Below, one piece after another: positions 281 to 22,966 of a DNA stretch of 64,000 nt. The notes under the pieces are model-generated. The model saw only the letters and a program-made list of their open reading frames with translations, had not been told where the DNA came from and did no database searches. The stretch spans positions 4,947-68,946 of the forward strand of contig JBHHYU010000005.1 of NCBI GenBank assembly GCA_046757725.1, written 5' to 3'. The DNA comes from Candidatus Binatia bacterium (GTDB lineage Bacteria > Desulfobacterota > Binatia > UBA9968). The first letter of the stretch is position 1, and each line of letters starts with the position of its first letter. The position numbers were made by a program, and so were the translations under genes.

Positions 281-1696
281 TCAAACCTTTTTGCGAGAAA
301 CGTTATTGATCCTTGGACCGTAGAAGCTCTCCGCACATTCCATGAGCGTTTCCGATAGGGTAGGATGGGGATGCACCGATTCCGCAAGGTCTTTCGCGGT
401 TGCCCCCATTTCCATGGCAAGAACTCCTTCGCTGATAAGTTCGCCGGATCCGACACCAACAATCCCGACACCAAGAATCCGTTCGGTCTCCGGCTCAATG
501 ATTAGTTTAGTGAGCCCATCCGGCCTGTCCATACTCATTGCTTTTCCCGAGCCGGACCAGGGAAACTTCACGATTCTTATGGAAATGTTTTTCTCCCTAG
601 CCTCCCGCTCAGTTAGGCCACACCACGCCACCTCTGGATCAGTAAAAATCACCGCGGGAATAATGACACGATCAAAGGTGCTCGATTCCCCAGTGATCAC
701 CTCCACGGCAATCTTTGCTTCCTTTGTGGCCTTGTGAGCCAGGAGGGGGCCGCCATTGACATCGCCAATAGAATATATATTGGGATCGGAAGTTTGCTGC
801 TTCGCATTGCATTGGATAAAACCATTCTCGTCTTTCGTCACTCTCGTGTTCTCAAGCCCCATGTCGCTGTCGTTAGGAATACGCCCGACGGTAACCAATA
901 CCCAGTCATAAAGCTCCTCCTTTTTTTGATGCTGAACTTGCATGGTAACTTTGATCTGTTTTTTGCTCGTTGCCATCTTTAACACTTTCGTGCGCAAGCG
1001 TACTTCCTGAAAAGCCTTTTTCGTGTATCGTACTACAGGCCGAACCAGATCTGCATCCACTTCCGGCAATAGGCTATCCATGGTTTCAGCCAATATGACA
1101 TGGCTTCCAAGAGTAGCGTAAACGGTCCCCAATTCGAGGCCGATATATCCACCCCCTACGACGAAGAGATTTTTAGGAATCTCCTCCAGTTCGAGGGCCT
1201 CGGTGGACGTCATGATTCGTCGGTTTCCCAGATCGAACGCGGCCGGCATGGCGGGCTTCGTCCCCACGGCGATGATTGCCTTTTCATAGGCGATAAATTT
1301 TTGACCTTGCGGCGTTTCCACTCGCAGAAGACGGGAGTCCTCGAAATGACCCTTGCCGTGCAGTACGGTGATACCGTGTTTGTGGCCCAGCCCGATAAGG
1401 CCCTGGGCGAGCCTTTCGATAATGGATTCCTTCCACGCACGCAGTTTGTCAAGGCTAATCTTGGGTTTGCCGAAAACGATTCCCCTGGTACCGGACTCGG
1501 TAACCTCAGTAATGAGACGCGTGGCGTGGAGAAGCGCCTTGGACGGAATGCAGCCACGATTGAGGCAGACCCCGCCGAGGCGAGGCGACTGTTCCACCAG
1601 AATGACCTTCTTACCTCTGTCGGCGGCGTAAAAAGCAGCTGTATAACCACCCGGCCCCGCACCGACAACCACGAGATCTGTTTTAATGGTTTCCAT
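281..1696 (-). CDS. lpdA: Dihydrolipoyl dehydrogenase (E3 component of 2-oxoacid dehydrogenase complex)
   Basis: 471 aa. N-terminal FAD-binding GxGxxG (VVGAGPGGYTAA) and redox-active disulfide motif GGVCLNRGCIPSK. Lies downstream of the E1 and E2 genes on the same strand. Confidence 0.9.
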   Translation of the reverse strand: METIKTDLVVVGAGPGGYTAAFYAADRGKKVILVEQSPRLGGVCLNRGCIPSKALLHATRLITEVTESGTRGIVFGKPKISLDKLRAWKESIIERLAQGLIGLGHKHGITVLHGKGHFEDSRLLRVETPQGQKFIAYEKAIIAVGTKPAMPAAFDLGNRRIMTSTEALELEEIPKNLFVVGGGYIGLELGTVYATLGSHVILAETMDSLLPEVDADLVRPVVRYTKKAFQEVRLRTKVLKMATSKKQIKVTMQVQHQKKEELYDWVLVTVGRIPNDSDMGLENTRVTKDENGFIQCNAKQQTSDPNIYSIGDVNGGPLLAHKATKEAKIAVEVITGESSTFDRVIIPAVIFTDPEVAWCGLTEREAREKNISIRIVKFPWSGSGKAMSMDRPDGLTKLIIEPETERILGVGIVGVGSGELISEGVLAMEMGATAKDLAESVHPHPTLSETLMECAESFYGPRINNVSRKKV

Positions 1697-1717
1697 AGGC
1701 TTCAGCGTTGCAATACC

Positions 1718-2980
1718 TTAACCGGTAAGCTCTGCTTCATTGAAATGTTCTAAAGCGTAGACGATCTCGCGGATAAAGCGGACTGCATTGGCTCCATCGA
1801 TCACTCGATGGTCGTAGGAAAGGCTTAGAGGCAGCATCGTGCGTACCGCTGTCTGCTGATTTATACTCACAACCTTTGACATTCCCCGTCCCAAACCTAG
1901 CACGGCCACCTGAGGTTTATAAATAATCGGAGTAAAATAAGTGCTCCCTATGGTCCCCTGATTGGAAATGGTAAAAGAGCCTCCCAGGAGTTCCTCGAGA
2001 GACACTTTTCTCCGCCTCGTTTTCTCCGTCAACTCGGACAGTTCTTTAGAGAGTTTCAGCATGTCTTTTTTATCCACGTCCTTGATCACCGGAACAATGA
2101 GACCCGCCTCAGTATCCACAGCGATGCATACGTGATAATAGTCCTTGTAGACGATCTCCCCTGTAACGTCATCCAAACTTGAATTAAAAACCGGGTGCTT
2201 TTTAAGAGCCTGAATTACCGCCTTTAAGACAAAAGAGGTAAGAGTCAGGTGGACGCGCTTTTTCTTATACAACGGAGCTTGCCTCTTTCTCATTGCCAAA
2301 ACGGATGTGATATCCGCTTCATCAAATTGAGTTATATGAGGAATGGTGGCCCAGGATTCGACCATCCTCTTACCGACGGTCCGTCTTAGAGACGTTATCG
2401 GTTCCCTGCGGACCGGCCCCCACTTCGAAAAATCGATGCCTTCAGCCGTTGAAGGGGACTGGAGTTCCCTTGTCGGAACGATTCGCTGAGAGGCCAATTG
2501 CTGTAAATGCTCGATGTAAGACTTCAAGTCGCGAAGGACGATTCTTCCTCCCCGCTCACTCCCTTTGACTCTGGTCAAATCAATGCCCAATTCTCTTGCG
2601 GTTTTTCTTATGGAAGGAGAGGCCGGAGGTCCAAGTCCGCTGGGGGATTTAGTTTCCTGCTGCGGCACGGCACTTTCTTCACCATCTGTCGTTTCCTCAG
2701 TCGGATCGACTCTATCTTCCGGTTTCTCAGCGATATCGTCGTTTGTGTTTTTCGGCGCCACAGAAATCAGTGCTTGACCTACTGTGATGGCATCGCCCTC
2801 TTTAACGTATATCCGGGTCACTTTACCCGATAACGTCGAAGGAATGGGGGCGATCGCCTTTTCATTCTCCAGCTCCAGGATGGTCTGATCCACCGCAATT
2901 TCATCACCCTCACTCACGAGGATGTTAACTACCGTAGCGGAGTCAGCACCTTCACCCAGGCGCGGGAGTTTAATATCCAT
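1718..2980 (-). CDS. aceF: Dihydrolipoamide acetyltransferase (E2 component)
   Basis: 420 aa. N-terminal lipoyl domain (LPRLGEG...ELENEKA with the lipoyl-lysine context), Ala/Pro-rich linker, peripheral subunit-binding domain, and C-terminal catalytic domain with the DHRVIDGA motif. Confidence 0.85.
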   Translation of the reverse strand: MDIKLPRLGEGADSATVVNILVSEGDEIAVDQTILELENEKAIAPIPSTLSGKVTRIYVKEGDAITVGQALISVAPKNTNDDIAEKPEDRVDPTEETTDGEESAVPQQETKSPSGLGPPASPSIRKTARELGIDLTRVKGSERGGRIVLRDLKSYIEHLQQLASQRIVPTRELQSPSTAEGIDFSKWGPVRREPITSLRRTVGKRMVESWATIPHITQFDEADITSVLAMRKRQAPLYKKKRVHLTLTSFVLKAVIQALKKHPVFNSSLDDVTGEIVYKDYYHVCIAVDTEAGLIVPVIKDVDKKDMLKLSKELSELTEKTRRRKVSLEELLGGSFTISNQGTIGSTYFTPIIYKPQVAVLGLGRGMSKVVSINQQTAVRTMLPLSLSYDHRVIDGANAVRFIREIVYALEHFNEAELTG

Positions 2981-3013
2981 GACCTTAGGGCTTCAAATTT
3001 CTAAGCAGGGTGT

Positions 3014-5647
3014 CTAAATGGAAAAAGGATAGAGTTTTTCCGGATCGAACTTAAGGTCACTGATGGCCTTCTCCACCACCTGCGCCTCCAGACTGCCTCG
3101 CTCGGATAGCGCATAGAGAGTTGCAATAACAGTTGTTTCAGCGTCCACTTCGAAAAAACGTCGGAGACGATGCCGAGTATCGCTTCTGCCGAATCCATCG
3201 GTTCCAAGGGTGATAAGGCCACCTGGAACCCAGGGGGCGATCTGGTCCGGAACCAGCCTTACATAGTCCGATATGGCTACAAAAGGGCCCTTCTCATTCT
3301 CAAGGAGACCCTCCAAGTATGATTTCTTAGCCGGCGATGTCGGATGCAGCATGTTCCATCTTCTGGCCCGCAATGCGTCATTCCTCAACAATTTGTAACT
3401 TGTTGCGCTCCATACATCAGCAGAAACGTCATATTTTGCCGCCAATATGTCTTGGGCCTTCAGGGCTTCATTTAAAAGCGGACCGCTTCCTAATATATGG
3501 GTTTTGTAAGGTTTCTTTGCTTGGCCTTTCCGGAACTTATAAAGGCCTTTAAGAATTCCTTGCTCTACCCCTTCCGGCATCTCGGGCATCAGGTGATTCT
3601 CATTATAGAGTGTTAAATAGTAAAATACCTCTTCTCCCTTCTCATACATTCGCCGCATCCCGTCCTGGATGATTACAGCGATTTCATAGGCAAAGGCCGG
3701 ATCATAAGTGAATAGGGTAGGAATCATACTCGCGAGAATCTGACTGTGGCCGTCTTGGTGTTGTAACCCCTCACCGTTGAGGGTGCTTCGTCCGGCAGTA
3801 GCGCCCAACAGAAACCCCTTGGCTCTAGTATCACCAGCAGCCCACATGAGATCGCCGATTCTTTGAAAACTAAACATGGAGTAGAAGATATAGAACGGAA
3901 TTGTAGGAAATCCGTAGGTAACGTCGCTGCTGCCCGCGGCTATGAAAGAAGACATGGCACCAGCCTCGGTTATTCCCTCTTCGAGAATCTGACCGTCTTG
4001 GGCCTCCTGGTAGTACAGGAGAGTTCCACGGTCGACGGGATCGTAGAGTTGCCCCTTGGGTGAATAGATTCCAATTTCGCGAAAAAGACCATCCATACCG
4101 AAGGTCCTCGCCTCATCGGGAATAATGGGGACGATTCGTTTTCCGATCCGTTTGTCACGCAAGAGCTTACTCAGAATACGGACAAATGCCATCGTCGTGG
4201 ATATCGAAAGGTCCTTAGAAGCTCTAAGAAATTCTCCATAAAACTCAAGCGAAGGAACGGAAATAGGTCCGGTTTTATGCTTGCGCTGAGGCAGAAATCC
4301 GCCCAGATGTCTTCTGCGTTCCAGGAGGTATTTTGTTTCAGGACTGGACAGAGCCGGACGGTAAAAGGGTGCTTCCACCACCTCTTCATCTGATAAAGGA
4401 ACGCCGAACCGGGAACGAAATTCTCTTAACTCCTTTTCATTGAGGAGTTTCTGCTGGTGAGTGATATTTCTTCCTTCCCCTGCTTCGCCCAATCCATAAC
4501 CCTTTATGGTCTTGGCCAAGATGACCGTTGGGGAACCTTTGTGCTCTACACCGGCTCGGTAAGCCGCATAGATTTTCTGTGGATCGTGCCCTCCCCGAAG
4601 AAGTTTATGGATCTGGTTGTCGGTCAGATGATTGACCAGCCCCAAAAGTTCCGGATATTTGCCGAAGAAGTGTTTTCTTGTGTAGCTTCCTGGTTCCACG
4701 GAATATTTTTGATAATCTCCGTCCACCGCCTCTTCCATACGCTTGACCAAAAGTCCTTTGTCATCGGCTTTGAGAAGGGGATCCCAATCGGAACCCCATA
4801 TCAGTTTGATAACGTTCCAACCTGCGCCACGAAAAAGGGCTTCGAGCTCCTGTATGATTTTCCCATTTCCCCTGACTGGTCCATCCAAACGTTGCAGATT
4901 GCAGTTAACGACCCAGATTAGGTTGTCGAGATTTTCCCGTGATGCCAGTGTCAAGGCCCCCGAAGCCTCCGGTTCATCCATCTCACCATCGCCCACGAAA
5001 CACCATATTTTTGGTTCTTCTCCGGTCAGAAACCCCCGGCCTCGTAAGTACCTGCTGAAACGTGCCTGGTAAATCGACATGATCGGGGCAAGACCCATAC
5101 AAACACTAGGAAACTGCCAGAAATCCGGCATCAGAAAAGGATGTGGATAGGAGGGCAGCCCTCCGCCCTTAGCAAATTCTTGGCGGAAATTATGCAGATA
5201 TTTAGCATCTAACCTCCACTCCAGATACGCTCTGGCGTAGATGCCTGGAGAGGCATGCCCTTGAAAGAAAATGATGTCTGCGGGAGTGTTCCCGTCTCCG
5301 CCCCTAAAAAAATGATTGAACCCGACTTCGTAAAGGGTTGCACAAGACGCATAGGTAGAGATATGCCCACCGATTCCGTGGTGAATCCGGTTAGCCTTGA
5401 CTACCATAGCCATTGCGTTCCAGCGGACATAACTCTTGATACGCCTCTCAACCTGACGCTCCCCTGGATAGATAGGTTCTCTTTCAGGTGGAATCGTATT
5501 GATATAGGGAGTGGTAAGGGGGAGCGGTATATGCATCCCCGCCTCACGTAACTTTGAAATGAGCTTGTTTAAAAGGCCGGGGGCTTGCTCGGAAAGGGCA
5601 TCCTTATCCGTAAAAACAGCCGGTTGCGCCTTCTCTTCTAATTCCAC
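3014..5647 (-). CDS. aceE: Pyruvate dehydrogenase E1 component, homodimeric AceE type
   Basis: 877 aa, the length of homodimeric E1. Thiamine-diphosphate-enzyme-like sequence. Immediately upstream of the E2 and E3 genes on the same strand. Confidence 0.85.
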   Translation of the reverse strand: MELEEKAQPAVFTDKDALSEQAPGLLNKLISKLREAGMHIPLPLTTPYINTIPPEREPIYPGERQVERRIKSYVRWNAMAMVVKANRIHHGIGGHISTYASCATLYEVGFNHFFRGGDGNTPADIIFFQGHASPGIYARAYLEWRLDAKYLHNFRQEFAKGGGLPSYPHPFLMPDFWQFPSVCMGLAPIMSIYQARFSRYLRGRGFLTGEEPKIWCFVGDGEMDEPEASGALTLASRENLDNLIWVVNCNLQRLDGPVRGNGKIIQELEALFRGAGWNVIKLIWGSDWDPLLKADDKGLLVKRMEEAVDGDYQKYSVEPGSYTRKHFFGKYPELLGLVNHLTDNQIHKLLRGGHDPQKIYAAYRAGVEHKGSPTVILAKTIKGYGLGEAGEGRNITHQQKLLNEKELREFRSRFGVPLSDEEVVEAPFYRPALSSPETKYLLERRRHLGGFLPQRKHKTGPISVPSLEFYGEFLRASKDLSISTTMAFVRILSKLLRDKRIGKRIVPIIPDEARTFGMDGLFREIGIYSPKGQLYDPVDRGTLLYYQEAQDGQILEEGITEAGAMSSFIAAGSSDVTYGFPTIPFYIFYSMFSFQRIGDLMWAAGDTRAKGFLLGATAGRSTLNGEGLQHQDGHSQILASMIPTLFTYDPAFAYEIAVIIQDGMRRMYEKGEEVFYYLTLYNENHLMPEMPEGVEQGILKGLYKFRKGQAKKPYKTHILGSGPLLNEALKAQDILAAKYDVSADVWSATSYKLLRNDALRARRWNMLHPTSPAKKSYLEGLLENEKGPFVAISDYVRLVPDQIAPWVPGGLITLGTDGFGRSDTRHRLRRFFEVDAETTVIATLYALSERGSLEAQVVEKAISDLKFDPEKLYPFSI

Positions 5648-5739
5648 GTCTCTATCTCCTACCCAATTCGAGATTTAAAGTTGAAGGAATGTGGTTTAAC
5701 TCGTTTCCAGGAGTTTAGTATAATAGCTTCTGCGCCAAC

Positions 5740-6456
5740 ATGGAATACATTGATCTAACCCTGCCTAGGCCGGAGCAAAATCTAGCATGCGATGAGGCTC
5801 TAACTGATATGTGTGAAGCGGGATACGGCCGCGAGATTTTGAGATTTTGGGAGCCCCGTGAATACTTTGTGGTTGTAGGATATTCAAATAAAACGGCTTT
5901 GGAGGTTAACCTGCTATCCTGTAGGAAACGGCGTATTCCCATATTTAGGCGGCGTTCTGGAGGCGGGACCATATTGCAGGGTCCCGGATGCCTGAACTAT
6001 TCATTGGTTTTAAAAATCCAAGACTCGTCACCTATGAATAACATTTCAGGAACAACCGCCCACATTATGAAATGTCATAGGAAAGCTATACAAGAGATTA
6101 TAGGGTCTAAGGTTGAAATTCAAGGCGTCAGCGATCTCACCTTAGGGATGTTAAAATTTTCGGGAAATGCCCAATACCGGAAAAGACGAGTTTTATTGTT
6201 TCACGGTACTTTTCTGCTTCATTTCAACATTCCACTTATGGAAAAGATACTCCAACTACCCTCAAAACGACCCCTTTATCGTTTTGACCGCTGTCACGAA
6301 GAATTTCTCGTTAATTTGAATCTGCCCTCTCAGAAAGTTAAGGAGGGCCTTCGAAAGGCATGGCATGCTACCAAAGCCCTACAACACATTCCCCGCGAAA
6401 GAATAGATGGCACGGTAAAAATGTACTCCACCGAACAATGGAGAGTTAAAACCTAG
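5740..6456 (+). CDS. Lipoate-protein ligase / octanoyltransferase family protein (LplA/LipB/LipM-like)
   Basis: 238 aa. RRSGGGTILQGPG and KFSGNAQ motifs resemble the BPL/LplA/LipB catalytic core. Divergently transcribed from the pyruvate dehydrogenase operon, which fits a role lipoylating E2. Confidence 0.55.
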   Translation: MEYIDLTLPRPEQNLACDEALTDMCEAGYGREILRFWEPREYFVVVGYSNKTALEVNLLSCRKRRIPIFRRRSGGGTILQGPGCLNYSLVLKIQDSSPMNNISGTTAHIMKCHRKAIQEIIGSKVEIQGVSDLTLGMLKFSGNAQYRKRRVLLFHGTFLLHFNIPLMEKILQLPSKRPLYRFDRCHEEFLVNLNLPSQKVKEGLRKAWHATKALQHIPRERIDGTVKMYSTEQWRVKT

Positions 6457-6697: not shown

Positions 6698-7426
6698 TCA
6701 GATTACAGTTTCGCAGCTGACATCGATCGTATTCGTGGGACCGCCACCCTGACAGACATCGGTTCCAGCGCCGCCGCTAATCGTGTCATCATCGAGGCCG
6801 CCTCCAATCGTGTCGGCTCCATCGCCCCCGTTAATGATGTCTTGTCCGCGACCGCCGCTAAGCACGTCGTCACCAGGCCCACCCCTGATCGTGTCGTCTC
6901 CAGTAGCTCCATGAATTGCGTCATCTTCGTCCCCGCCCCTAAGGTCATCGCCGCCTGGCCCGCCGTCTATCATGTCGTCACCTAGCCCACCCCTAATCGT
7001 GTCGGGACCTCTGTCGCCAGTGATTCTATCGTTACCTGATCCTCCTCTTATCGTGTCACCGTCGCTGCCACCGAAGATCCTATCGTTGCCTGCATTGCCG
7101 CTAATCGTGTCAGGGCCGTCGCCACCAAAGATTCTGTCGTTGCCTGATCCTCCCTGGATCTCGTCGGCTCCACTGTTCCCGAAGATTTCGTCCCGGCCGG
7201 AGCCGCCACAAATTATGTCGTCGCCACCACGCCCGATTATCGTATCATTACCACCAAAGCCATGGATCACGTCAGCTCCGCTTGTACCTATGAGAACGTC
7301 AGGACCAGGAGTCCCCGGGATGGTTACGGCTGCGCCTTGGCATAGCGGCTGCCCATATGCCGGGTAAGATGAAGCCATAAACAAGCCGATCACAATTGCT
7401 ACCAAAACCGTAAAATTTTTCATCGG
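6698..7426 (-). CDS. Secreted RTX-type (hemolysin-type) calcium-binding repeat protein
   Basis: The product has a Sec-type signal peptide (MKNFTVLVAIVIGLFMASSYPAYG) followed by about 20 tandem GGxGxDxUx nonapeptide repeats (GGSGNDRIFGGDGPDTISGNAGNDRIFGG...). The start was moved from the track's 7474 to the internal ATG at 7426, which is preceded by an AAGGAGG ribosome-binding site. Confidence 0.7.
   Translation of the reverse strand, partial: PMKNFTVLVAIVIGLFMASSYPAYGQPLCQGAAVTIPGTPGPDVLIGTSGADVIHGFGGNDTIIGRGGDDIICGGSGRDEIFGNSGADEIQGGSGNDRIFGGDGPDTISGNAGNDRIFGGSDGDTIRGGSGNDRITGDRGPDTIRGGLGDDMIDGGPGGDDLRGGDEDDAIHGATGDDTIRGGPGDDVLSGGRGQDIINGGDGADTIGGGLDDDTISGGAGTDVCQGGGPTNTIDVSCETVI
6740..7295. 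repeat. Intragenic tandem 27-bp (nonapeptide) repeat array encoding RTX calcium-binding repeats
   Basis: Recurring ...aatcgtgtc... / ...gatcgtgtc... units. The antisense frame gives a Pro/Ser-rich artefact ORF (6972..7367), which is typical of repetitive DNA. Confidence 0.6.
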
Positions 7427-7929
7427 CGATACCTCCTTTAAATTTAGTCCCTTCAACCCAGTCCATACTCTCATTTAAAAAACAGCACAGCCTTACGAAC
7501 TAACTCAAAGAGTGCCCAGCTCCAATCTGCCCTTTTACCCCTCCCAGAAACATCTCCGTCCCTCATCTTAAGTCTCAAATCATAGTAAAACCCAATCAAA
7601 GCTCGGGACGGCCGCTCCCTGTCGGAATCTACCAGGCTATATTCCGCGTCAGAATGCTTGACAGGGGAGAGCTACGATATCCTAACAAGAAAACTTTAGC
7701 GTTGGGAATTTAAGGGAAGTTAATGGAACTATTTGGCGTAGATGTGTAGGGAGTCTACCATAGGATTTTGGGTCCTGACGGAGGCGTGGGTCTCGGGGCA
7801 AGGGGACGAAGGGACTGGGGGTGTATATCCTAGGTATCTTTGCTTATATAACGTTGTTGACTAGCTTGAATTACTTCTAGATGTTTTTCTGAAACAGAAA
7901 CGACGGCCTGTTGTGGACCCTGTTTCTTA

Positions 7930-9978
7930 CTACTTGCTTTCGTCCGCAAGCCGCTTTTGTGCTTCCTCATTAGAGATGGATTCCAACTCAGCCAACATGC
8001 GAGCCAGCTCTTCGTCCCCGGCCTTCTTCGCCATGTTCTCCGTAATGATCAAAGCCATGCCTGCAACTGTGGGAGACTCGAAGAGGGATTTTATGGGCAA
8101 TTCTACTTTGAATGTTTTGATTACTCGCGAGATGACCTGGGTGGCGTTGAGGGAGTGACCTCCTAGATCGAAAAAATTGTCATAGATGCCCACTTGATCG
8201 AGACCCAAAACCTCGGCCCAGACACCCGCCACCGTCACCTCAACCGGAGTGTGGGGCGCTACGAAGGTCCCGTTCAGATTCGGTCTGCTTCGACCGAGGG
8301 TGGGCAACGCGCGGCGGTCCACCTTGCCGTTGGGAGTCAGCGGCATCCTTTTTAAATTAACGAAGGCGGTGGGTATCATGTAGTCGGGAAGTCTACCTTT
8401 TAGGTAACGGCGCAGCTCTTCGGTAGATGGACCAAAGCTGTTCCGCAAGACCAGATAGGCCACCAAGCATGGGTCACCCTGCCCGTCTTCCCGACTCGTA
8501 ACGATGGCCTCATTGATTCCAGGGATATCGAGCAGCGCCAACTCGATCTCTGCAACTTCGATGCGGAAACCTCTAACTTTTACTTGGAAGTCTCTTCGCC
8601 CGAGATGCTCAAGGCTGCCGTCCGGACGCATGCGGCCCAAGTCTCCTGTGAGATAAATTCGCTGGGCTTCACTGCCGGGGTCGCATGGAAATCTGGTCTG
8701 AGTTAAGTGGGGATTTTGCCAGTAGCCCGGCGAAAGATAGTCACTGCTCACCGCAATTTCACCCGCATGACCGACGCCGATCTCTTCCCGGCTCTCACCG
8801 AGCAACAGGATCTTCTTGTCTTGCACCGGGTATCCTGTCGGAACAACGGTTCCGGTGATCTGCGATTGCTTATCGAGGAAGTACTGACGGATCCATCCGG
8901 TCTCAGTGGATCCCATCCCTGTGTAAAGAATGCTAGTTGCCGAGAAATACTTCTTGTATAACTCTACGTCTTTTATGAGAACCCTCTCACCTCCAAATCG
9001 ACATAGGCGAAGCCTGGGAAACTTTTCTTTTCCAGTCAGGCCGGCAACGAAACTGCGGAAGACCGTGGGGACCGAAATGTAAAACGTGATCTCTTCGCGA
9101 ATAAGGAAGTCTGCCAAGTTCGCCAAACCCTCGTGTTTAATATCGAACGGATACACGGCTGCCCCGTTGAGTAAAGGGCCGAAAATACCTCTCACGGAAC
9201 CGTTGACGCTGTAAGAGTAGAATAGGGTCATCCGGTCGTCCGGACAGATGCGGAGAGTGTTCGTATACAGCATGACCTCATGAAGCACGTTGCGGTGGTT
9301 TTGGACAACGCCCTTTGGCTGTCCCGTTGAACCGGATGTGTACAGAATATACGCTAGCGGGTCCGACGATAGTGACAAGTCCAGATTCTTTGCGGACAAA
9401 CTCGTAGTGACTCGGTCAATGTTAATCAGTGAAACCGGACCCTGAACCAACCGTTTGGCCAAGGAAAGATTTTTGGTGTTGGTGACTATCAGCCCGGCCT
9501 GTGAATCTTTGAGAATGTAGGCGGTTCTTGAAAGGGGATACAAGGGATCCAGGGGCACGTACATTTTACGTGCTTTCAAAGCACCGAGAATTGCACCAAT
9601 CATTGGTGCGTTGTGTTCAAAAAGCAGAGCAACTTGCTTGTGTCGTTCGCCGCATTGGCCGACGATGGCTCGCGCCACGCGATTGGCAGCTTTATTCAGT
9701 TCATCGTATGTAAACTGGTGGGTCCCGGTCTTGACGGCAAGGCGATTAGGATACTTCCGCACCATTTGCTCGAAGCGGTCCGGGATCGATTGCTCGATCT
9801 CATCCCTCTTGAACTCAATAAACTTTCCTGTCGGGTGGAAACATTTGTCTCGGATAGCTTGCTGCTCCGGTGGAAGATCAGAAATTGCAGTGGAAATATT
9901 GGTCATATGCTGCTGGCGGATCTCATCGCATACACCTTCTAATACTGGGATAATATTAATCCAATCATGTTCTTCCAT
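7930..9978 (-). CDS. Stand-alone NRPS-type adenylation-thiolation (A-T/PCP) didomain protein
   Basis: 682 aa. Adenylation core motifs are present: A3 LAYILYTSGSTGQPKGV, A5-like GMGSTE, A7 YLTGDLGR, A8 GRRDFQVKVRGFRIEVAEIE, A10 PLTPNGKVDR. The carrier-protein motif is DNFFDLGGHSLNATQV. No condensation or thioesterase domain is present. Confidence 0.75.
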   Translation of the reverse strand: MEEHDWINIIPVLEGVCDEIRQQHMTNISTAISDLPPEQQAIRDKCFHPTGKFIEFKRDEIEQSIPDRFEQMVRKYPNRLAVKTGTHQFTYDELNKAANRVARAIVGQCGERHKQVALLFEHNAPMIGAILGALKARKMYVPLDPLYPLSRTAYILKDSQAGLIVTNTKNLSLAKRLVQGPVSLINIDRVTTSLSAKNLDLSLSSDPLAYILYTSGSTGQPKGVVQNHRNVLHEVMLYTNTLRICPDDRMTLFYSYSVNGSVRGIFGPLLNGAAVYPFDIKHEGLANLADFLIREEITFYISVPTVFRSFVAGLTGKEKFPRLRLCRFGGERVLIKDVELYKKYFSATSILYTGMGSTETGWIRQYFLDKQSQITGTVVPTGYPVQDKKILLLGESREEIGVGHAGEIAVSSDYLSPGYWQNPHLTQTRFPCDPGSEAQRIYLTGDLGRMRPDGSLEHLGRRDFQVKVRGFRIEVAEIELALLDIPGINEAIVTSREDGQGDPCLVAYLVLRNSFGPSTEELRRYLKGRLPDYMIPTAFVNLKRMPLTPNGKVDRRALPTLGRSRPNLNGTFVAPHTPVEVTVAGVWAEVLGLDQVGIYDNFFDLGGHSLNATQVISRVIKTFKVELPIKSLFESPTVAGMALIITENMAKKAGDEELARMLAELESISNEEAQKRLADESK

Positions 9979-12462: not shown

Positions 12463-13644
12463 CTATTTCGAATGATGCGACTGCTCGTAATGCTGGCGCA
12501 GGAGGTCCTTACCGTAGTCGTTGCCATTTGGGGTGCGAACCACTAGGTGGATGTGATCCTTGTAAGGCTTCTGATATTGGGGGAATGCGATACCCCGCTC
12601 GTGGTCGAACTCAATGATAATCGTCGGACTATGGACGCGGTAGTAGAACACACTGTCTTCTTCCATCTCGCCCATCCAGGCAAAGTAAGTTTCCCGCAGA
12701 TGCCGCTTCACCTCCTCCATCTTGACTTGGGCATGAGCCGGTCGGATACGACCGACGTGGAGTTCAATCAGACGGAGCAAAAGGTCGTGTTGAGAACTTG
12801 AGAGACTTTCGTAGGGGATTCCCTCGTACCGGAGCTCAAAGTTGTCGCGAAAGGCCGTGGTGAATAGACCGCGCGGCAGATCGAGAGAGAGGACAGCCTT
12901 GTTACGTTGCTCCGCGGAAAGCGCACGGATAACCGTCAGTCCCTGCTCCTCTTCAGCTTTAAACACCCGCGTGCCGCCGTACTTGCCGCCCTGGGCAAAG
13001 ACCGGCTCCGACCCCAGAAAGGTTGGGGTCATGATAATCTGGTCTCCGAGGATAAAGGTGTTGATGTTGAGATGATGGCCGTCGATCTGCCAACCCCACG
13101 GCTCAGCGGCGGAGGGTTTCCCCATAATGCTGAGCCAGTAAAGGTCCTCACCGTACTCATCGTGCTTACCCGTCATCTCCATTACTGTTTCATTGAGACG
13201 CATGACATCCCGAGCGGTCTCAAATCCCTGAGTGCTCAAACATTCTCTCAGGAGCGCAAAAGCTCCGTCACGCTGGGCATCGTTCATCTCAAATAACGGC
13301 ATCCCGTGCCGCATCAGCAGCCGATGGATATTACTCCATTTGCGCCACTCATCGGTGTCAATCGGAAATAGGGCCTTGGCACGCTGCTCCGGGTTCAGAG
13401 TTCCCAGGAAGTTTTCAGCACCTTCTCTGATGGACTGCGTGGACACACCTGTTTTCTGGATAGGGAAGAGACCCGGAATCACCGTTCCATCGGTAGTAAT
13501 CCCTTTATAAGGTTGCGCCACCGCCTCTAGCGCGTGTTTGACGTAATCAGGAGGGCCACCGCCAACTTTCAATGCCCGCTTAGTCTGTGCCGGGGAGGCT
13601 TCTGCAAGGGATGCGTTACCCGAACCTGGATTACTGTCAACCAT
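12463..13644 (-). CDS. DUF3500 family protein
   Basis: 393 aa. The C-terminal region (YFAWMGE...YYRVHSPTIIIEFDHE...HIHLVVRTPNGNDYG) matches what I recall of the DUF3500 family signature. No signal peptide. Confidence 0.5.
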   Translation of the reverse strand: MVDSNPGSGNASLAEASPAQTKRALKVGGGPPDYVKHALEAVAQPYKGITTDGTVIPGLFPIQKTGVSTQSIREGAENFLGTLNPEQRAKALFPIDTDEWRKWSNIHRLLMRHGMPLFEMNDAQRDGAFALLRECLSTQGFETARDVMRLNETVMEMTGKHDEYGEDLYWLSIMGKPSAAEPWGWQIDGHHLNINTFILGDQIIMTPTFLGSEPVFAQGGKYGGTRVFKAEEEQGLTVIRALSAEQRNKAVLSLDLPRGLFTTAFRDNFELRYEGIPYESLSSSQHDLLLRLIELHVGRIRPAHAQVKMEEVKRHLRETYFAWMGEMEEDSVFYYRVHSPTIIIEFDHERGIAFPQYQKPYKDHIHLVVRTPNGNDYGKDLLRQHYEQSHHSK

Positions 13645-19146: not shown

Positions 19147-19265
19147 ATTTTTCGCTTTTGGACTTGACTTTTCTAGTTTTTGGTCATAGATATACAAATA
19201 AGTAACTATTCCAATTGGTATTATCGTTAGTAAACGTTTGTGAGACGTTAATGGAGATATCTAAA

Positions 19266-21530
19266 ATGGCTGAATATCAAACCTGGAAAGAAAAACTGGC
19301 GGGCCACCTTTCCCCAGACCTCGCCCATGAGATTGATATCTTTGAGACCCAGATTGAACTACGAAAGCAGGGGAAACTTGATGAAAGGGTCTTTGCCGAG
19401 ACTCGGTTGCGCCGCGGCGTCTACGGACAGCGCTACGACAACGGACAGCGGCACGACGGGAAGCGTGTACAGAAACTTAAATTGCCCTCTGGAGAGCGAA
19501 CAAAGGGGCCTGAAACCGTCTGGGATGCCCCAGGCATGATGCGGATCAAAGTCCCCTTTGGAGGGCTAAATCCGGAACAGATGGATACTCTGGCGGATCT
19601 GTCGGAGGAGTATTCTGATGGCGTTGCCCATGTTACAACCCGTCAGGATATTCAGTACCACTACGTCCACGTCGAGGATACGCCGTCACTAATGCGCCGT
19701 CTTGCCGAAGTCGGGATCACTACCAGAGAGGCCTGCGGTAACGTGGTCCGCAATGTAACGGCATGTCCCATTGCCGGGGTCTGCAAGGGTGAGGTTTTTG
19801 ATGTGACACCCTATGCTAAGGCCTGCTCAAATTTCTTATTGGGGCATCCGGATACCCAAGATTTCGGGCGCAAGTTTAAAATCGCTTTTTCGGGTTGCAA
19901 GGATGAGGCATGTGGGCTTGCGAACATGCATGATGCCGGTGCCATTGCGAGGACGAGGGTTATAGACGGTAAAGAGCGGCGCGGTTTTGAATTCTATGTT
20001 GGTGGCGGCCTGGGCGCTGTACCGCGCAAGGCTAAACTTTTTGATGAATTCCTGCCGGCTGAAGAGCTGTTACCGACCTTGCAGGCCATAGCGAGGATTT
20101 TCGCTCGTCTAGGGGAAAAACGCAATCGAGCACGCGCGCGTCTCAAATTCTTGGTCGGTCATCTGGGGATTGAAGAATTTCGGAGGATCGTAGGGGAAGA
20201 ACGCCAAAAGCTCGATGTCGACCCTCGATGGACTGACTTTCTTTCCGGTGTTGATGAAGTTACCGAGGAACCTCTAAAAAAAGGAGTAGCTTTAAACGGT
20301 ACAGCACATCCCAAAGGATTTGATGCGTGGGTCGGCACCAACGTTTATCATCAGAAACAGACCGATTATGTCGTGGCAACCGTCACTTTGCCATTGGGAG
20401 ATATCACGGCTATCCAATTGCGGGGACTTGCGGACGTCGCTCGGCGGTTTGTCAAGGATGCCGTACGGACAACGGTAGAACAAAACATGGTCCTACGATG
20501 GGTTAGTGAAGCCGATCTCCCTGAACTGTATCGCGCCCTTGAAAAACTAGATCTTGGGGAAGCCAACGCCGGGACTATTGTGGATGTCACAGCCTGCCCG
20601 GGCACGGATACCTGTAAATTGGGCATAGCATCATCTCGGGGACTCGCCAGAGAGCTTCGTCTCCGGCTGGCTGAAAAAAGCCTACAGTTGAACCAGGCGG
20701 TAAAGAATTTACGGATTAAGGTCAGCGGATGTTTCAACTCGTGCGGGCATCACCACCTCGCTGATATCGGCTTTTACGGCATCAGTAGAAATTTTAATGG
20801 ATATGCCGTGCCTCACTTCCAGGTGATGTTGGGTGGAATGTGGCGAGATAATGCCGGCGCCTATGGACTCGCTTCGGGAGCGGTCCCGTCCAAGCGAATA
20901 CCTGATGTGGTCCTTAGGGTCACGGAACGCTACATTCGGGATCGTCTGAAGGGTGAGAATTTTAAGGAATTCATCGATAGGATCGGTAAGAGGCGGGTCA
21001 AGGACATGCTGGAGGATCTTGCCAAGATCCCTTCTCACGAAGTAGACGATTCCTTTTACAGTGATTGGGGGGATCCGCGCGAATTTACGCTCACGGATAT
21101 GGGCACAGGAGAGTGCGCAGGGGAGGTGGTTTCTCAAGCACAGTTTACCCTGGCCGCGAGCGAACGTGAACTTTTCGAATCGCAGATACAACTGGACAGT
21201 GGGAATTGCAAGAACGCTATTCGGACAGCTTATACCTCGATGTTACATGCCGCTCAAGGGCTTATTAAGGTGCAAGTCAATGATGTTTCGGATGATGAAG
21301 AGGCGATCCTAGCTGAATTTCGCGAACGGTTCTGCAATACAAAACTCTTTTATGACAGATTCGCCGGCAGCAAATTTGCGGATTTTATTTTCAAGGCAAA
21401 AGACGTGCGAAAGAGTAACGGCGACGACGGCTGGGAATTGGCCCGTCAACGTATTGAGGAGGCACAGCTATTCATTGACGCAGCACATAACTGCTATAGC
21501 CGGCTCCAAAGTGGAGTTGCTCAACAATGA
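19266..21530 (+). CDS. sir: Ferredoxin-dependent sulfite reductase (siroheme/[4Fe-4S], assimilatory) with C-terminal extension
   Basis: Nitrite/sulfite reductase ferredoxin-like half domains. Siroheme-[4Fe-4S] cysteine motifs CPGTDTC and SGCFNSCGHHHL. The start was set at MAEYQ, which is preceded by a GGAG ribosome-binding site. The last ~160 residues are an extra domain. Confidence 0.8.
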   Translation: MAEYQTWKEKLAGHLSPDLAHEIDIFETQIELRKQGKLDERVFAETRLRRGVYGQRYDNGQRHDGKRVQKLKLPSGERTKGPETVWDAPGMMRIKVPFGGLNPEQMDTLADLSEEYSDGVAHVTTRQDIQYHYVHVEDTPSLMRRLAEVGITTREACGNVVRNVTACPIAGVCKGEVFDVTPYAKACSNFLLGHPDTQDFGRKFKIAFSGCKDEACGLANMHDAGAIARTRVIDGKERRGFEFYVGGGLGAVPRKAKLFDEFLPAEELLPTLQAIARIFARLGEKRNRARARLKFLVGHLGIEEFRRIVGEERQKLDVDPRWTDFLSGVDEVTEEPLKKGVALNGTAHPKGFDAWVGTNVYHQKQTDYVVATVTLPLGDITAIQLRGLADVARRFVKDAVRTTVEQNMVLRWVSEADLPELYRALEKLDLGEANAGTIVDVTACPGTDTCKLGIASSRGLARELRLRLAEKSLQLNQAVKNLRIKVSGCFNSCGHHHLADIGFYGISRNFNGYAVPHFQVMLGGMWRDNAGAYGLASGAVPSKRIPDVVLRVTERYIRDRLKGENFKEFIDRIGKRRVKDMLEDLAKIPSHEVDDSFYSDWGDPREFTLTDMGTGECAGEVVSQAQFTLAASERELFESQIQLDSGNCKNAIRTAYTSMLHAAQGLIKVQVNDVSDDEEAILAEFRERFCNTKLFYDRFAGSKFADFIFKAKDVRKSNGDDGWELARQRIEEAQLFIDAAHNCYSRLQSGVAQQ

Positions 21531-21544
21531 TGATACGGTGACAG

Positions 21545-22135
21545 ATGGATCTACAGAAAATTAATATTAAACTCCCCGTCAAGGGAGGCGGCGAGCTGCC
21601 TCTGAAAGCGTTCATCCCCATTTTCAATGCATGGATACAGGCTTCGGACGGCTATTACTATGACCTGGCCGATTACAGTCACATGCCAACGGGCCCCGGG
21701 CTGGTTTTGGTCGCCGATGAGGCAAATTTCAGCCTTGATCAAACCGATAAACAACTAGGGCTTCTGTACAACAGGAAGAGACCTATGAAAGGATCGAACG
21801 GCGAGAAGCTTCTTTCCGCCTTCAGGTCGGCGCTCCAAAACTGCCGTAGACTGGAGGACGAACCAGCTCTCGGCGGGAGGTTTAAATTTTGGAGTAATGA
21901 GGCACTCGTGTTTATAAACGATAGACTCCGCGCACCGAACACTGAAGACACGTTTCGTACCGTTAAACCGGAACTCGAGAAATTGGGACAAATCCTATAT
22001 GGGGGGGCGGAGTTCGCTGTGCAGAAAGAGAATGATCTAAAGAGACGGTTCGGCGTCCGGCTGAAGACCGCAGCTTTTTTTGAGGCCGGAACACTGCTGG
22101 AAAATATCGAATCGGCCGGTGGTAGTGTTCAATAG
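21545..22135 (+). CDS. Hypothetical protein, possibly conserved, in the sulfur-assimilation operon
   Basis: 196 aa, with no recognisable motifs. It is wedged between the sulfite reductase homologue and the APS/PAPS reductase gene. Confidence 0.4.
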   Translation: MDLQKINIKLPVKGGGELPLKAFIPIFNAWIQASDGYYYDLADYSHMPTGPGLVLVADEANFSLDQTDKQLGLLYNRKRPMKGSNGEKLLSAFRSALQNCRRLEDEPALGGRFKFWSNEALVFINDRLRAPNTEDTFRTVKPELEKLGQILYGGAEFAVQKENDLKRRFGVRLKTAAFFEAGTLLENIESAGGSVQ

Positions 22136-22228
22136 GCTGGTCAAGTGAGGTATTTTTTTTAGATAAAAAGTAATTTAACCGATAAAGATTCTTAATTAAA
22201 GTATAAAATAACCTGAGGAGGATTTAGG

Positions 22229-22966
22229 ATGACATTTGCCGCGAAAATCGATGGCTGGGAAGCCGGCGCTGGTGAGTTGGAACGTTTAACGGCTCAAGAG
22301 CTTCTGCAATGGGGTTTAGCAACCTTCCAACCGAGAATCGCTTTTGCTTGTTCGTTCCAGGCGGAAGAGTCTGTGGTGATGGATATGATGTACCGCCTAA
22401 ACGGTTCGGACTTCCGTGTGTTTACATTAGACACCGGGCGGCTGCCTCAGGAGACCTATGACTGCATGGACTCGATTCGGGAACGTTACGGTATCGACAT
22501 CGAGGTGTTATTCCCGGATGCTACCCGAGTCGAAGATATGACGCGACGCCACGGGCTTAACCCCTTTTACAAGACTGTTGAGTTGCGCAAAATGTGCTGC
22601 CGTATCCGAAAGGTGGAGCCCCTGAATCGCGCGTTGAAAGACTTGGACGCTTGGATCACCGGTCTCCGCCGCCGGCAGGCGGTTACTCGGACGGACCTCC
22701 GGAAGGTGGATAGTGATAGGGACCACGGAGGTATTGTCAAGCTCAATCCACTAGCTGATTGGACCGAAAAGCAGGTCTGGGATTACATTAACGAGAATCA
22801 GGTTCCTTATAATAAGCTCCATGACCATGGATTTCCCAGCATTGGCTGTGCTCCTTGTACTCGGGCCGTCAAGCCGGGTGAGGATATCCGGGCGGGAAGA
22901 TGGTGGTGGGAAAGCCCCGAGTTGAAGGAATGCGGGCTACATGTGGTTGCTAAGACAAAGGAGTGA
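22229..22966 (+). CDS. cysH: Adenylyl-sulfate (APS)/PAPS reductase, thioredoxin-dependent, Fe-S containing type
   Basis: 245 aa. PAPS-reductase fold with a CC pair (MCCRIRK), a CAPC motif (SIGCAPCT) and C-terminal KECGLH. Confidence 0.8.
   Translation: MTFAAKIDGWEAGAGELERLTAQELLQWGLATFQPRIAFACSFQAEESVVMDMMYRLNGSDFRVFTLDTGRLPQETYDCMDSIRERYGIDIEVLFPDATRVEDMTRRHGLNPFYKTVELRKMCCRIRKVEPLNRALKDLDAWITGLRRRQAVTRTDLRKVDSDRDHGGIVKLNPLADWTEKQVWDYINENQVPYNKLHDHGFPSIGCAPCTRAVKPGEDIRAGRWWWESPELKECGLHVVAKTKE

Follow-up and report, generated by a model that had tools for sequence, protein, structure and literature searches.

A 64,000-nucleotide stretch of contig JBHHYU010000005.1 from a Candidatus Binatia bacterium, hereafter the window, carries on its minus strand a gene for an adenylation-thiolation (A-T) didomain protein of the non-ribosomal peptide synthetase (NRPS) kind. 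This gene probably encodes an orphan starter (loading) module whose substrate would be a carboxylic acid that lacks a free alpha-amine and may be anionic. The domain architecture, the intact motifs, two substitutions at the usual alpha-amine contacts, the clade membership, the context statistics and the occurrence of relatives in starter position were observed directly, and from them we infer the amine-free substrate, its anionic nature, the role as supplier of a starter unit and a partner acting in trans. The original prediction, made from the letters of this DNA, had noticed an Asn at the position that recognises the alpha-amino group, together with a neighbouring catechol-type O-methyltransferase, and had proposed an aryl-acid activating enzyme of the DhbE/EntE type. 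The absence of the canonical alpha-ammonium contact (Asn259) stood up to the analysis, whereas the aryl-acid type drawn from that loss did not and is largely refuted by the sequence.

Domain architecture of the A-T protein

An A-T didomain had been predicted at this place, and the complete open reading frame (ORF) indeed spans exactly 7930..9978 on the minus strand and holds the Pfam domains AMP-binding (residues 69-420, 199.7 bits), AMP-binding_C (477-552) and PP-binding (583-642). Against the NCBIfam model for amino-acid adenylation (TIGR01733) the protein scored 316.8 bits, slightly under the cut-off of 317.4, and the remaining top NCBIfam models were NRPS modules. In the adenylation (A) domain, as read from the translation, motif A3 is LAYILYTSGSTGQPKGV, A7 is YLTGDLG, A8 is GRRDFQVKVRGFRIEVAEIE, A9 is LPDYMIP and A10 is NGKVDRR. 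Lys552 is the equivalent of the catalytic Lys517 (GrsA residues and code positions follow 1AMU numbering; the GrsA reference was identical to residues 3-556 of PDB 1AMU chain A). In the thiolation (T, carrier) domain the phosphopantetheine-attachment residue Ser609 (codon 8152-8154) sits in FFDLGGHSL, and G606, G607 and S609 were invariant in the family alignment. The ANL A-domain motifs with Lys517 and a fused GG(H/D)S carrier, two marks of an NRPS A-T initiation didomain, were both found. No condensation (C) domain lies upstream of the A domain in the ORF, which starts about 60 amino acids (aa) ahead of motif A1.

An AlphaFold2 model built with 42 homologues had a mean predicted local distance difference test (pLDDT) score of 82, and Foldseek gave it a target-normalised TM-score of 0.90 against 1AMU. 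Residues 1-32 were modelled with low confidence, and the true start codon may be Met25. Two further conserved elements flank the domains. Cys46, His48, Pro49 and Gly51 are almost invariant in an N-terminal stretch, and the C-terminal tail has the clade consensus ELxRMLAELESLSDEEAQRLLA, with tblastn matches of clade members extending to query residue ~680; both elements may serve in docking. A protein identical to that of the window has been deposited from a Candidatus Binatia metagenome-assembled genome (MAG).

The best matches in every sequence and fold search were GrsA-PheA (1AMU) and the LgrA initiation module (5ES5, 6MFZ), with 33-34% identity. They share with the query the fold, motifs A1-A3 and A6-A10, Lys517 and a fused GGHS peptidyl carrier protein (PCP). 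The query differs from them in having Asn259 for Asp235, Ser357 for the Pro of the GPTE motif and a pocket with two Arg and one Trp, and in lacking a formylation (F) or C domain.

Loss of both usual contacts to the alpha-amine

The Asn at the Asp235 site was borne out by independent alignments. A phmmer search against the PDB aligned SYSVNGSV of the query on SFSFDGSA of LgrA, and MAFFT placed Asn259 (codon AAC) on Asp235 of GrsA without a gap there (MTLFYSYSVNGSVRGIF vs IGQFASISFDASVWEMF). Profile, multiple and pairwise alignments agreed on this assignment, and the residue in the profile alignment was Asn259, not Asp. The ten-residue specificity code is N259-G260-R263-I301-R327-G329-G354-W362-I363-K552 (NGRIRGGWIK), where WI, the reading anchored on motif A5, was preferred for positions 330/331. 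In A5 itself (ILYTGMGSTETG, core YTGMGSTETG) Ser357 stands in place of the GPTE Pro. Both residues by which an amino-acid A domain is recognised, Asp235 (FDxS) and the Pro of A5 NxYGPTE, are replaced, by Asn259 and Ser357, respectively. According to a review (PMC11253843), amino-acid A domains conserve this Pro, and A domains for hydroxy, keto and aryl acids have other residues in place of Asp235.

Both substitutions were followed through the 120 best database matches, nearly all of which are A-T didomains of ~660 aa from metagenomes and Binatia MAGs, with 54-77% identity to the query; the list also holds the window's own protein (P0001) and one 1051-aa match at 47%. Asp was found at position 235 in 0/120 homologues (S 40, N 36, A 15, G 13, I 5, V 5, F 2). 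The position of the GPTE Pro was occupied by S in 68, T in 20, A in 19, I in 8, G in 3, C in 1 and P in 1, so that S, T or A replaced the Pro in 107/120. Among the A domains of the genomic loci described below, the Pro was kept in 109/140 domains with Asp235 vs 6/61 domains without it. The clade has lost both usual contacts to the alpha-amine. Asn259 is not a chance substitution, because the closest homologues also lack Asp235 and the stand-alone relatives in the census below are likewise non-Asp. At the same time Asn itself is not the selected feature, because within the clade the residue at 235 may be S, N, A, G, V or I.

Cationic residues in the specificity pocket

From the code residues Arg263 and Arg327 one would expect the substrate to bear an additional group, either anionic or strongly hydrogen-bonding. 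Basic residues are common at several code positions of the homologues: R, H or K at position 239 in 74/120, H or R at 278 in 60/120, R, K or H at 299 in 60/120 and R at 322 in 50/120. Per eight variable code positions, the 120 homologues have on average 2.2 R, K or H residues and the non-Asp domains of the loci 1.6, compared with 0.45 for the Asp235 domains.

Module 1 of ACV synthetase, which activates L-alpha-aminoadipate with the code EPRNIVEFVK, offers a precedent for an Arg at position 239 recognising an anionic group, as its Arg239 probably binds a carboxylate of the substrate. ACV synthetase is a multimodular enzyme of fungi and actinobacteria, and its likeness to the query (a residue other than Asp at 235, and Arg239) comes from the code alone and was taken as a lead only.

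Relatives of the A-T gene and their genomic settings

In a neighbour-joining tree of 173 A domains the A domain of the window fell into a clade of 45 terminals, none of which has Asp235, and this clade was nested inside 119 Asp235 domains, with EntE as the outgroup. By its place in this tree the gene belongs to an uncharacterised clade within the amino-acid-type A domains. A literature search for this clade, or for NRPS of Binatia, found no paper.

We then classified every A domain of 80 metagenome loci that carry a relative of the A-T gene by identity to the query, residue 235 and the presence of an upstream C domain. Among domains with at least 45% identity, the 36 without a C domain upstream were all non-Asp (0 Asp), and the 5 with a C domain upstream all had Asp (0 non-Asp). 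Of the domains below 45% identity with a C domain upstream, 112 of 117 had Asp and 5 did not.

Members of the clade are encoded as separate A-T genes, often in tandem arrays or immediately upstream of C-A-T modules. A starter or loading role is supported by a relative with 70% identity (L085, code NGRHRGG..), because it forms the first module of a single 1718-aa A-T-C-A-T ORF. One locus (L091, 4-8345) contains the 3' end of one A-T gene, two complete overlapping A-T genes, which are possibly translationally coupled, and then a C-A-T gene. In another (L093, 2428-10755) the matched A-T gene and, after it, a C-A-T module come behind four other tandem A-T genes, of which one is split, and the same tandem A-T pattern was found in L005 and L003. 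Each of these four loci has 2-5 non-Asp A-T genes in tandem, often with overlapping start and stop codons, each gene having its own code and no C domain lying between them. Such tandem batteries with different codes may point to a combinatorial or alternative loading of starter units. Other clade copies are orphans, including one with the same code as the window gene, located beside a DUF2332 gene (L004), and those of L089/L101.

In the 64-kb window, tblastn with two C domains and the A-T protein as queries found no further NRPS parts, and a crude motif search found no MbtH-like or phosphopantetheinyl transferase (PPTase) genes, which is a weak negative. The neighbouring genes encode the E1, E2 and E3 components of pyruvate dehydrogenase (PDH), an LplA lipoate ligase, an RTX-repeat protein, a DUF3500 protein, a GNAT protein, a phosphoesterase, a kinase and sulfite and 3'-phosphoadenylylsulfate (PAPS) reductases, a setting of primary metabolism. 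When the ORFs neighbouring the clade genes were clustered all against all, no partner besides C-A-T was found that is shared with the window; a periplasmic NMT1-like binding protein adjoins a different non-Asp A-T subtype only.

Proposed function

In the mechanism that we favour, the A domain would adenylate an acid that lacks a free alpha-amine, such as a hydroxy, keto or N-blocked acid, and that may carry an extra anionic group. The acid would be loaded as a thioester on Ser609 of the protein's own carrier domain and passed as a starter unit to a condensation partner in trans, the partner in relatives being a C-A-T module; the handover might proceed via the conserved C-terminal tail.

Several observations weigh against this proposal. 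Loss of Asp235 is compatible with an amino-acid substrate, since McyG, which has Val there, activates L-Phe (PMC11253843). The reading of code positions 330/331 varies with the alignment (GW in the large one, WI if the ungapped A5 serves as the anchor), and the comparison of codes covered only a few known ones. The difference in basic residues between the non-Asp and Asp235 domains of the loci (Mann-Whitney test, p = 2.5e-12) ignores shared ancestry. The C-domain search of the window did not identify a partner in trans. Finally, the A-T gene is co-directional with the two genes upstream of it, a radical SAM (rSAM) gene and the methyltransferase (MT) gene, across a gap of 107 bp without a terminator-like site, so that a functional link to those two genes is conceivable.

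It is conceivable, although we regard it as doubtful, that the gene and its relatives constitute an undescribed monophyletic class of NRPS starter enzymes in Binatia-like bacteria and soil metagenomes. Such a class would have lost both amine contacts, have pockets rich in Arg, His and Lys and load anionic or poly-oxygenated non-amino acids; batteries of 2-5 tandem, differently coded A-T genes would precede a single C-A-T gene, and the orphans would serve partners in trans. If this were true, anionic or poly-oxygenated non-amino acids would be a class of substrate that NRPS A domains are not yet known to use. Absence of Asp235 is in itself well known among A domains, and any novelty may lie in the clade, with its double loss of hallmarks, its cationic pockets and its tandem batteries, as judged from the literature. 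Prediction and engineering of non-ribosomal products depend mainly on the specificity of A domains, and bioactivity is largely set by the starter units. A sizeable, uncharacterised clade without either amine contact and with cationic pockets would be a blind spot of specificity predictors and would point to unfamiliar starter acids in an uncultured phylum (Binatia).

The radical SAM-methyltransferase pair upstream of the A-T gene

The prediction of a family-3 O-methyltransferase next to the A-T gene was confirmed by the Pfam Methyltransf_3 score (Table 1) and by the best PDB match, 8c9v, a family 3 O-methyltransferase (E = 3e-14). The MT gene shares 11 bases with the gene of a variant rSAM protein, in which the three cysteines of C157-x8-C166-x2-C169 were invariant among the homologues. 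A faint, sub-threshold match of the rSAM protein to the LipS2 lipoyl synthase model (E = 0.003) was also seen. We fetched 79 genome loci around rSAM relatives and analysed 46 loci for neighbours, the window included. The MT gene immediately followed the rSAM gene in 45/46 loci, that is, in every locus reaching past the end of the rSAM gene. In Binatia-like MAGs the rSAM protein was 74-95% and the MT 55-89% identical to its counterpart in the window, and the rSAM protein of other phyla was 54-60% identical; the pair was also observed in Nitrospirae, Planctomycetota and Gammaproteobacteria. No other partner was consistently conserved with the pair in these loci, where only lineage-typical solute-binding proteins, an amidohydrolase and a Rieske protein were seen.

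The A-T gene, in contrast, adjoins the pair in only 4/46 loci. The loci with the nearest rSAM relatives (L006, 94% identity by tblastn; L007, 89%) have no A-T gene downstream, and neither rSAM nor MT was found in any of the 80 metagenome loci of A-T relatives (0/80). We judged that the MT belongs with the rSAM gene and not with the A-T gene, given its presence beside the rSAM gene in 45/46 loci and its absence from all 80 A-T loci. The MT has kept the metal-ligand motif of class I cation-dependent O-methyltransferases, with D124 (SDIE) and D151-N152 (IDN) aligning with DADK and DN of MxSafC (5LHM); these residues we take to be metal ligands by analogy with COMT and CCoAOMT. Where the catalytic Lys of D-x-x-K aligns, the MT of the window has Pro (D-I-E-P, within SDIEPPE at MT residues 123-129). 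SD[IL][EQ]PPE was found in 36 Binatia-type MT orthologues, whereas distant orthologues keep DA[DE]K. The argument that the O-methyltransferase matches a catechol-type substrate of the A domain is not supported by these observations. By comparative genomics the A-T and O-methyltransferase genes belong to different conserved units.

Cooperation of the A-T protein with the upstream pair, in which both enzymes would modify the carrier-tethered acid by a tailoring similar to that of type II NRPS, is an unlikely alternative in our view. The three genes lie on the same strand, and a scan of the gap between the MT and A-T genes found no promoter or terminator consensus on the minus strand, with overall counts at the level of shuffled sequence, which leaves the operon question unsettled. 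The order rSAM-MT-A-T is repeated in one other locus (L033) between different flanking genes, and in two Planctomycetota loci (L046, 4377-9983; L048, 177-2804) a gene for an A-T-thioesterase (A-T-TE) protein is found directly upstream of rSAM-MT. The protein of L046 has an extra N-terminal region of ~1050 aa without Pfam matches. However, in L033 (12497-14489, from a long-read MAG) the A-T gene has a different code (SQKFQGR..), and a frameshift or an assembly error has broken it into two overlapping ORFs. The same code is seen in the orphan A-T genes of L094, L095 and L097. The Planctomycetota A domains are only 32-33% identical to the query and are of a different kind, with Gly for Asp235, Thr or Ser for Lys517 and TRD instead of TGD in A7. 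Since A-T genes are common in Binatia-like loci, about one chance adjacency per ~40 loci is expected by a rough estimate, and the rarity of the adjacency among the rSAM loci, its absence from the nearest of them and the lack of the pair in all A-T loci also speak against cooperation.

Alternative substrates

Activation of an alpha-amino acid is quite unlikely. Arg263 and Arg327 would require such a substrate to be acidic, and backbone carbonyls together with Asn259 would have to hold its amine in place of Asp. The McyG precedent and the overall sequence and fold, which are those of the amino-acid A-domain type, are in favour of this reading. Against it, two independent hallmarks of amine contact have been lost together across the clade, their loss perfectly tracks the absence of an upstream C domain, that is, the starter position, and no compensating acidic residue was seen in the code or in the A4 motif.

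Replacement of Asp235 is shared with StsA/CesA, CrpD-M2 and enniatin synthetase A1 and with the loading A-PCP of McyG, and in the keto-acid enzyme StsA the GPTE Pro is also replaced, by Met (PMC11253843, PMC13643306). In keto- and hydroxy-acid A domains position 235 is small or hydrophobic (I, V, G, A) and the pockets are hydrophobic, whereas the query has a polar Asn and a cationic pocket. Keto-acid modules also carry a ketoreductase (KR) domain, which is missing here. The alpha-keto-acid type of StsA/CesA was rejected as a candidate: the GPTE Pro is replaced in the query as well, but the residue at 235 is a polar Asn and there is no KR domain.

Activation of an aryl acid (2,3-dihydroxybenzoate, DHB, or another catechol), with the adjacent family-3 O-methyltransferase methylating the catechol substrate or product, is very improbable. 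The query has Asn at 235 in common with DhbE (1MD9/1MDB), EntE (3RG2) and BasE, which likewise make no contact to an alpha-amine; the neighbouring MT is a member of Methyltransf_3 with its D...DN metal-ligand motif retained; and the two genes are co-directional, with no terminator-like site between them. DHB-type A domains, however, combine N235 with Y236, S240, cis-Pro241 and a strictly conserved A5 motif, QQVFGMAEGL (PMC11253843). Of these hallmarks the query has N235 only: position 236 is Gly260, followed by SVRGIF, and A5 differs from QQVFGMAEGL. Where aryl-acid enzymes have the aromatic residue 236 (Tyr or Phe) and Ser240/cis-Pro241 (HNYxxSSPG), the query reads VNGSVRGIF, without SSPG. 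Three of the four sequence features of the aryl-acid type are missing, and Asn235 alone is present. The query matches the code of DhbE and EntE (NYSAQGVVNK) at 3/10 positions, N235, G301 and K517, the last of which is universal. The literature code was used in this comparison, as MAFFT had shifted EntE by two residues in A4 (AMP for NYS); the EntE sequence itself was verified against 3RG2.

Overall similarity gave the same result. In BLASTP the query matched EntE with 24% identity and 81 bits, vs 33% and 280 bits for GrsA, and GrsA matched EntE with 22% and 100 bits; by these scores the query is as distant from EntE as GrsA is. Aryl-acid enzymes (DhbE, EntE, BasE) were not found among the best 60 PDB sequence matches or the best 50 Foldseek matches; both lists, headed by LgrA, consist entirely of amino-acid-type NRPS A domains. 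In the tree the gene falls within the amino-acid-type A domains, in another lineage than the aryl-acid enzymes, and the Asn itself varies inside the clade. Aryl-acid enzymes are, moreover, normally free-standing A domains with a separate aryl carrier protein (ArCP), whereas the query has a fused PCP. Membership of the aryl-acid type was rejected on motifs, similarity, fold and tree position, and the coupling of the MT to the rSAM gene and the Pro at its catalytic position further count against a catechol pathway. One code residue (Asn235) and the annotation of a neighbour (a family-3 O-methyltransferase) are insufficient to call a catechol-acid pathway.

The least probable reading, a decaying relic of a lost NRPS cluster without current function, would fit an orphan among housekeeping genes and the split gene of L033, but the 682-codon ORF is intact, the catalytic motifs, Lys552 and Ser609 are all present, the structure model is confident and other orphan copies of the clade (e.g. 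L004, L089) are intact as well.

Table 1. Features of the A-T gene and of the two genes upstream of it (window coordinates).
Feature	Position	Strand	Basis or remark
A-T didomain gene	7930..9978	-	complete ORF, 682 aa; ORF list and translation
Adenylation domain, residues 69-552	8323..9774	-	Pfam; A1-A3 and A6-A10 intact, A4 and A5 variant
Asn259 codon (AAC), equivalent of GrsA Asp235, first code residue	9202-9204	-	alignments
Arg263 codon, code position 239, cationic pocket residue	9190..9192	-	alignment
Arg327 codon, code position 299, cationic pocket residue	8998..9000	-	alignment
Ser357 codon, equivalent of the A5 GPTE Pro (GrsA P325, LgrA P483)	8908..8910	-	alignment
Lys552 codon, equivalent of catalytic Lys517	8323..8325	-	alignment; invariant in 120/120 homologues
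Thiolation (carrier) domain, residues 583-642	8053..8232	-	Pfam PP-binding
Conserved N-terminal stretch, residues 37-62	9792-9870	-	clade consensus AIRxKCFHPTGxFxEFKxEEIEQSIP
C-terminal helical tail, residues 645-682 (...EELARMLAELESISNEEAQKRLA...)	7933..8046	-	family consensus and predicted helix 655-679
Family-3-like methyltransferase, 189 aa	10086..10655	-	Pfam PF01596 (Methyltransf_3), 56.8 bits vs cut-off 22
Variant radical SAM protein, 465 aa	10645..12042	-	NCBIfam NF045502, 176 bits vs cut-off 125

Other genes of the window

The RTX-repeat gene (6698-7474, minus strand) is found on the strand of the A-T gene, 455 bp further downstream, and a weak terminator-like site is present at 7591-7607; its 258-aa product has seven matches to RTX calcium-binding nonapeptide repeats and a hydrophobic N-terminal segment. 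The genes of the PDH/2-oxoacid dehydrogenase set are found in the region 281-6456 on the minus strand (E3 281-1696, E2 1718-2980, E1 3014-5647), and the lipoate-protein ligase gene (5740-6456, plus strand) is divergent from them. Upstream of the rSAM gene is the gene for the DUF3500 protein (12463-13644, minus strand, 333 bits), which is not conserved at this place in other loci. The genes at 19215-22966 (plus strand) encode a sulfite/nitrite reductase (771 aa) and the PAPS reductase, both belonging to sulfate assimilation.

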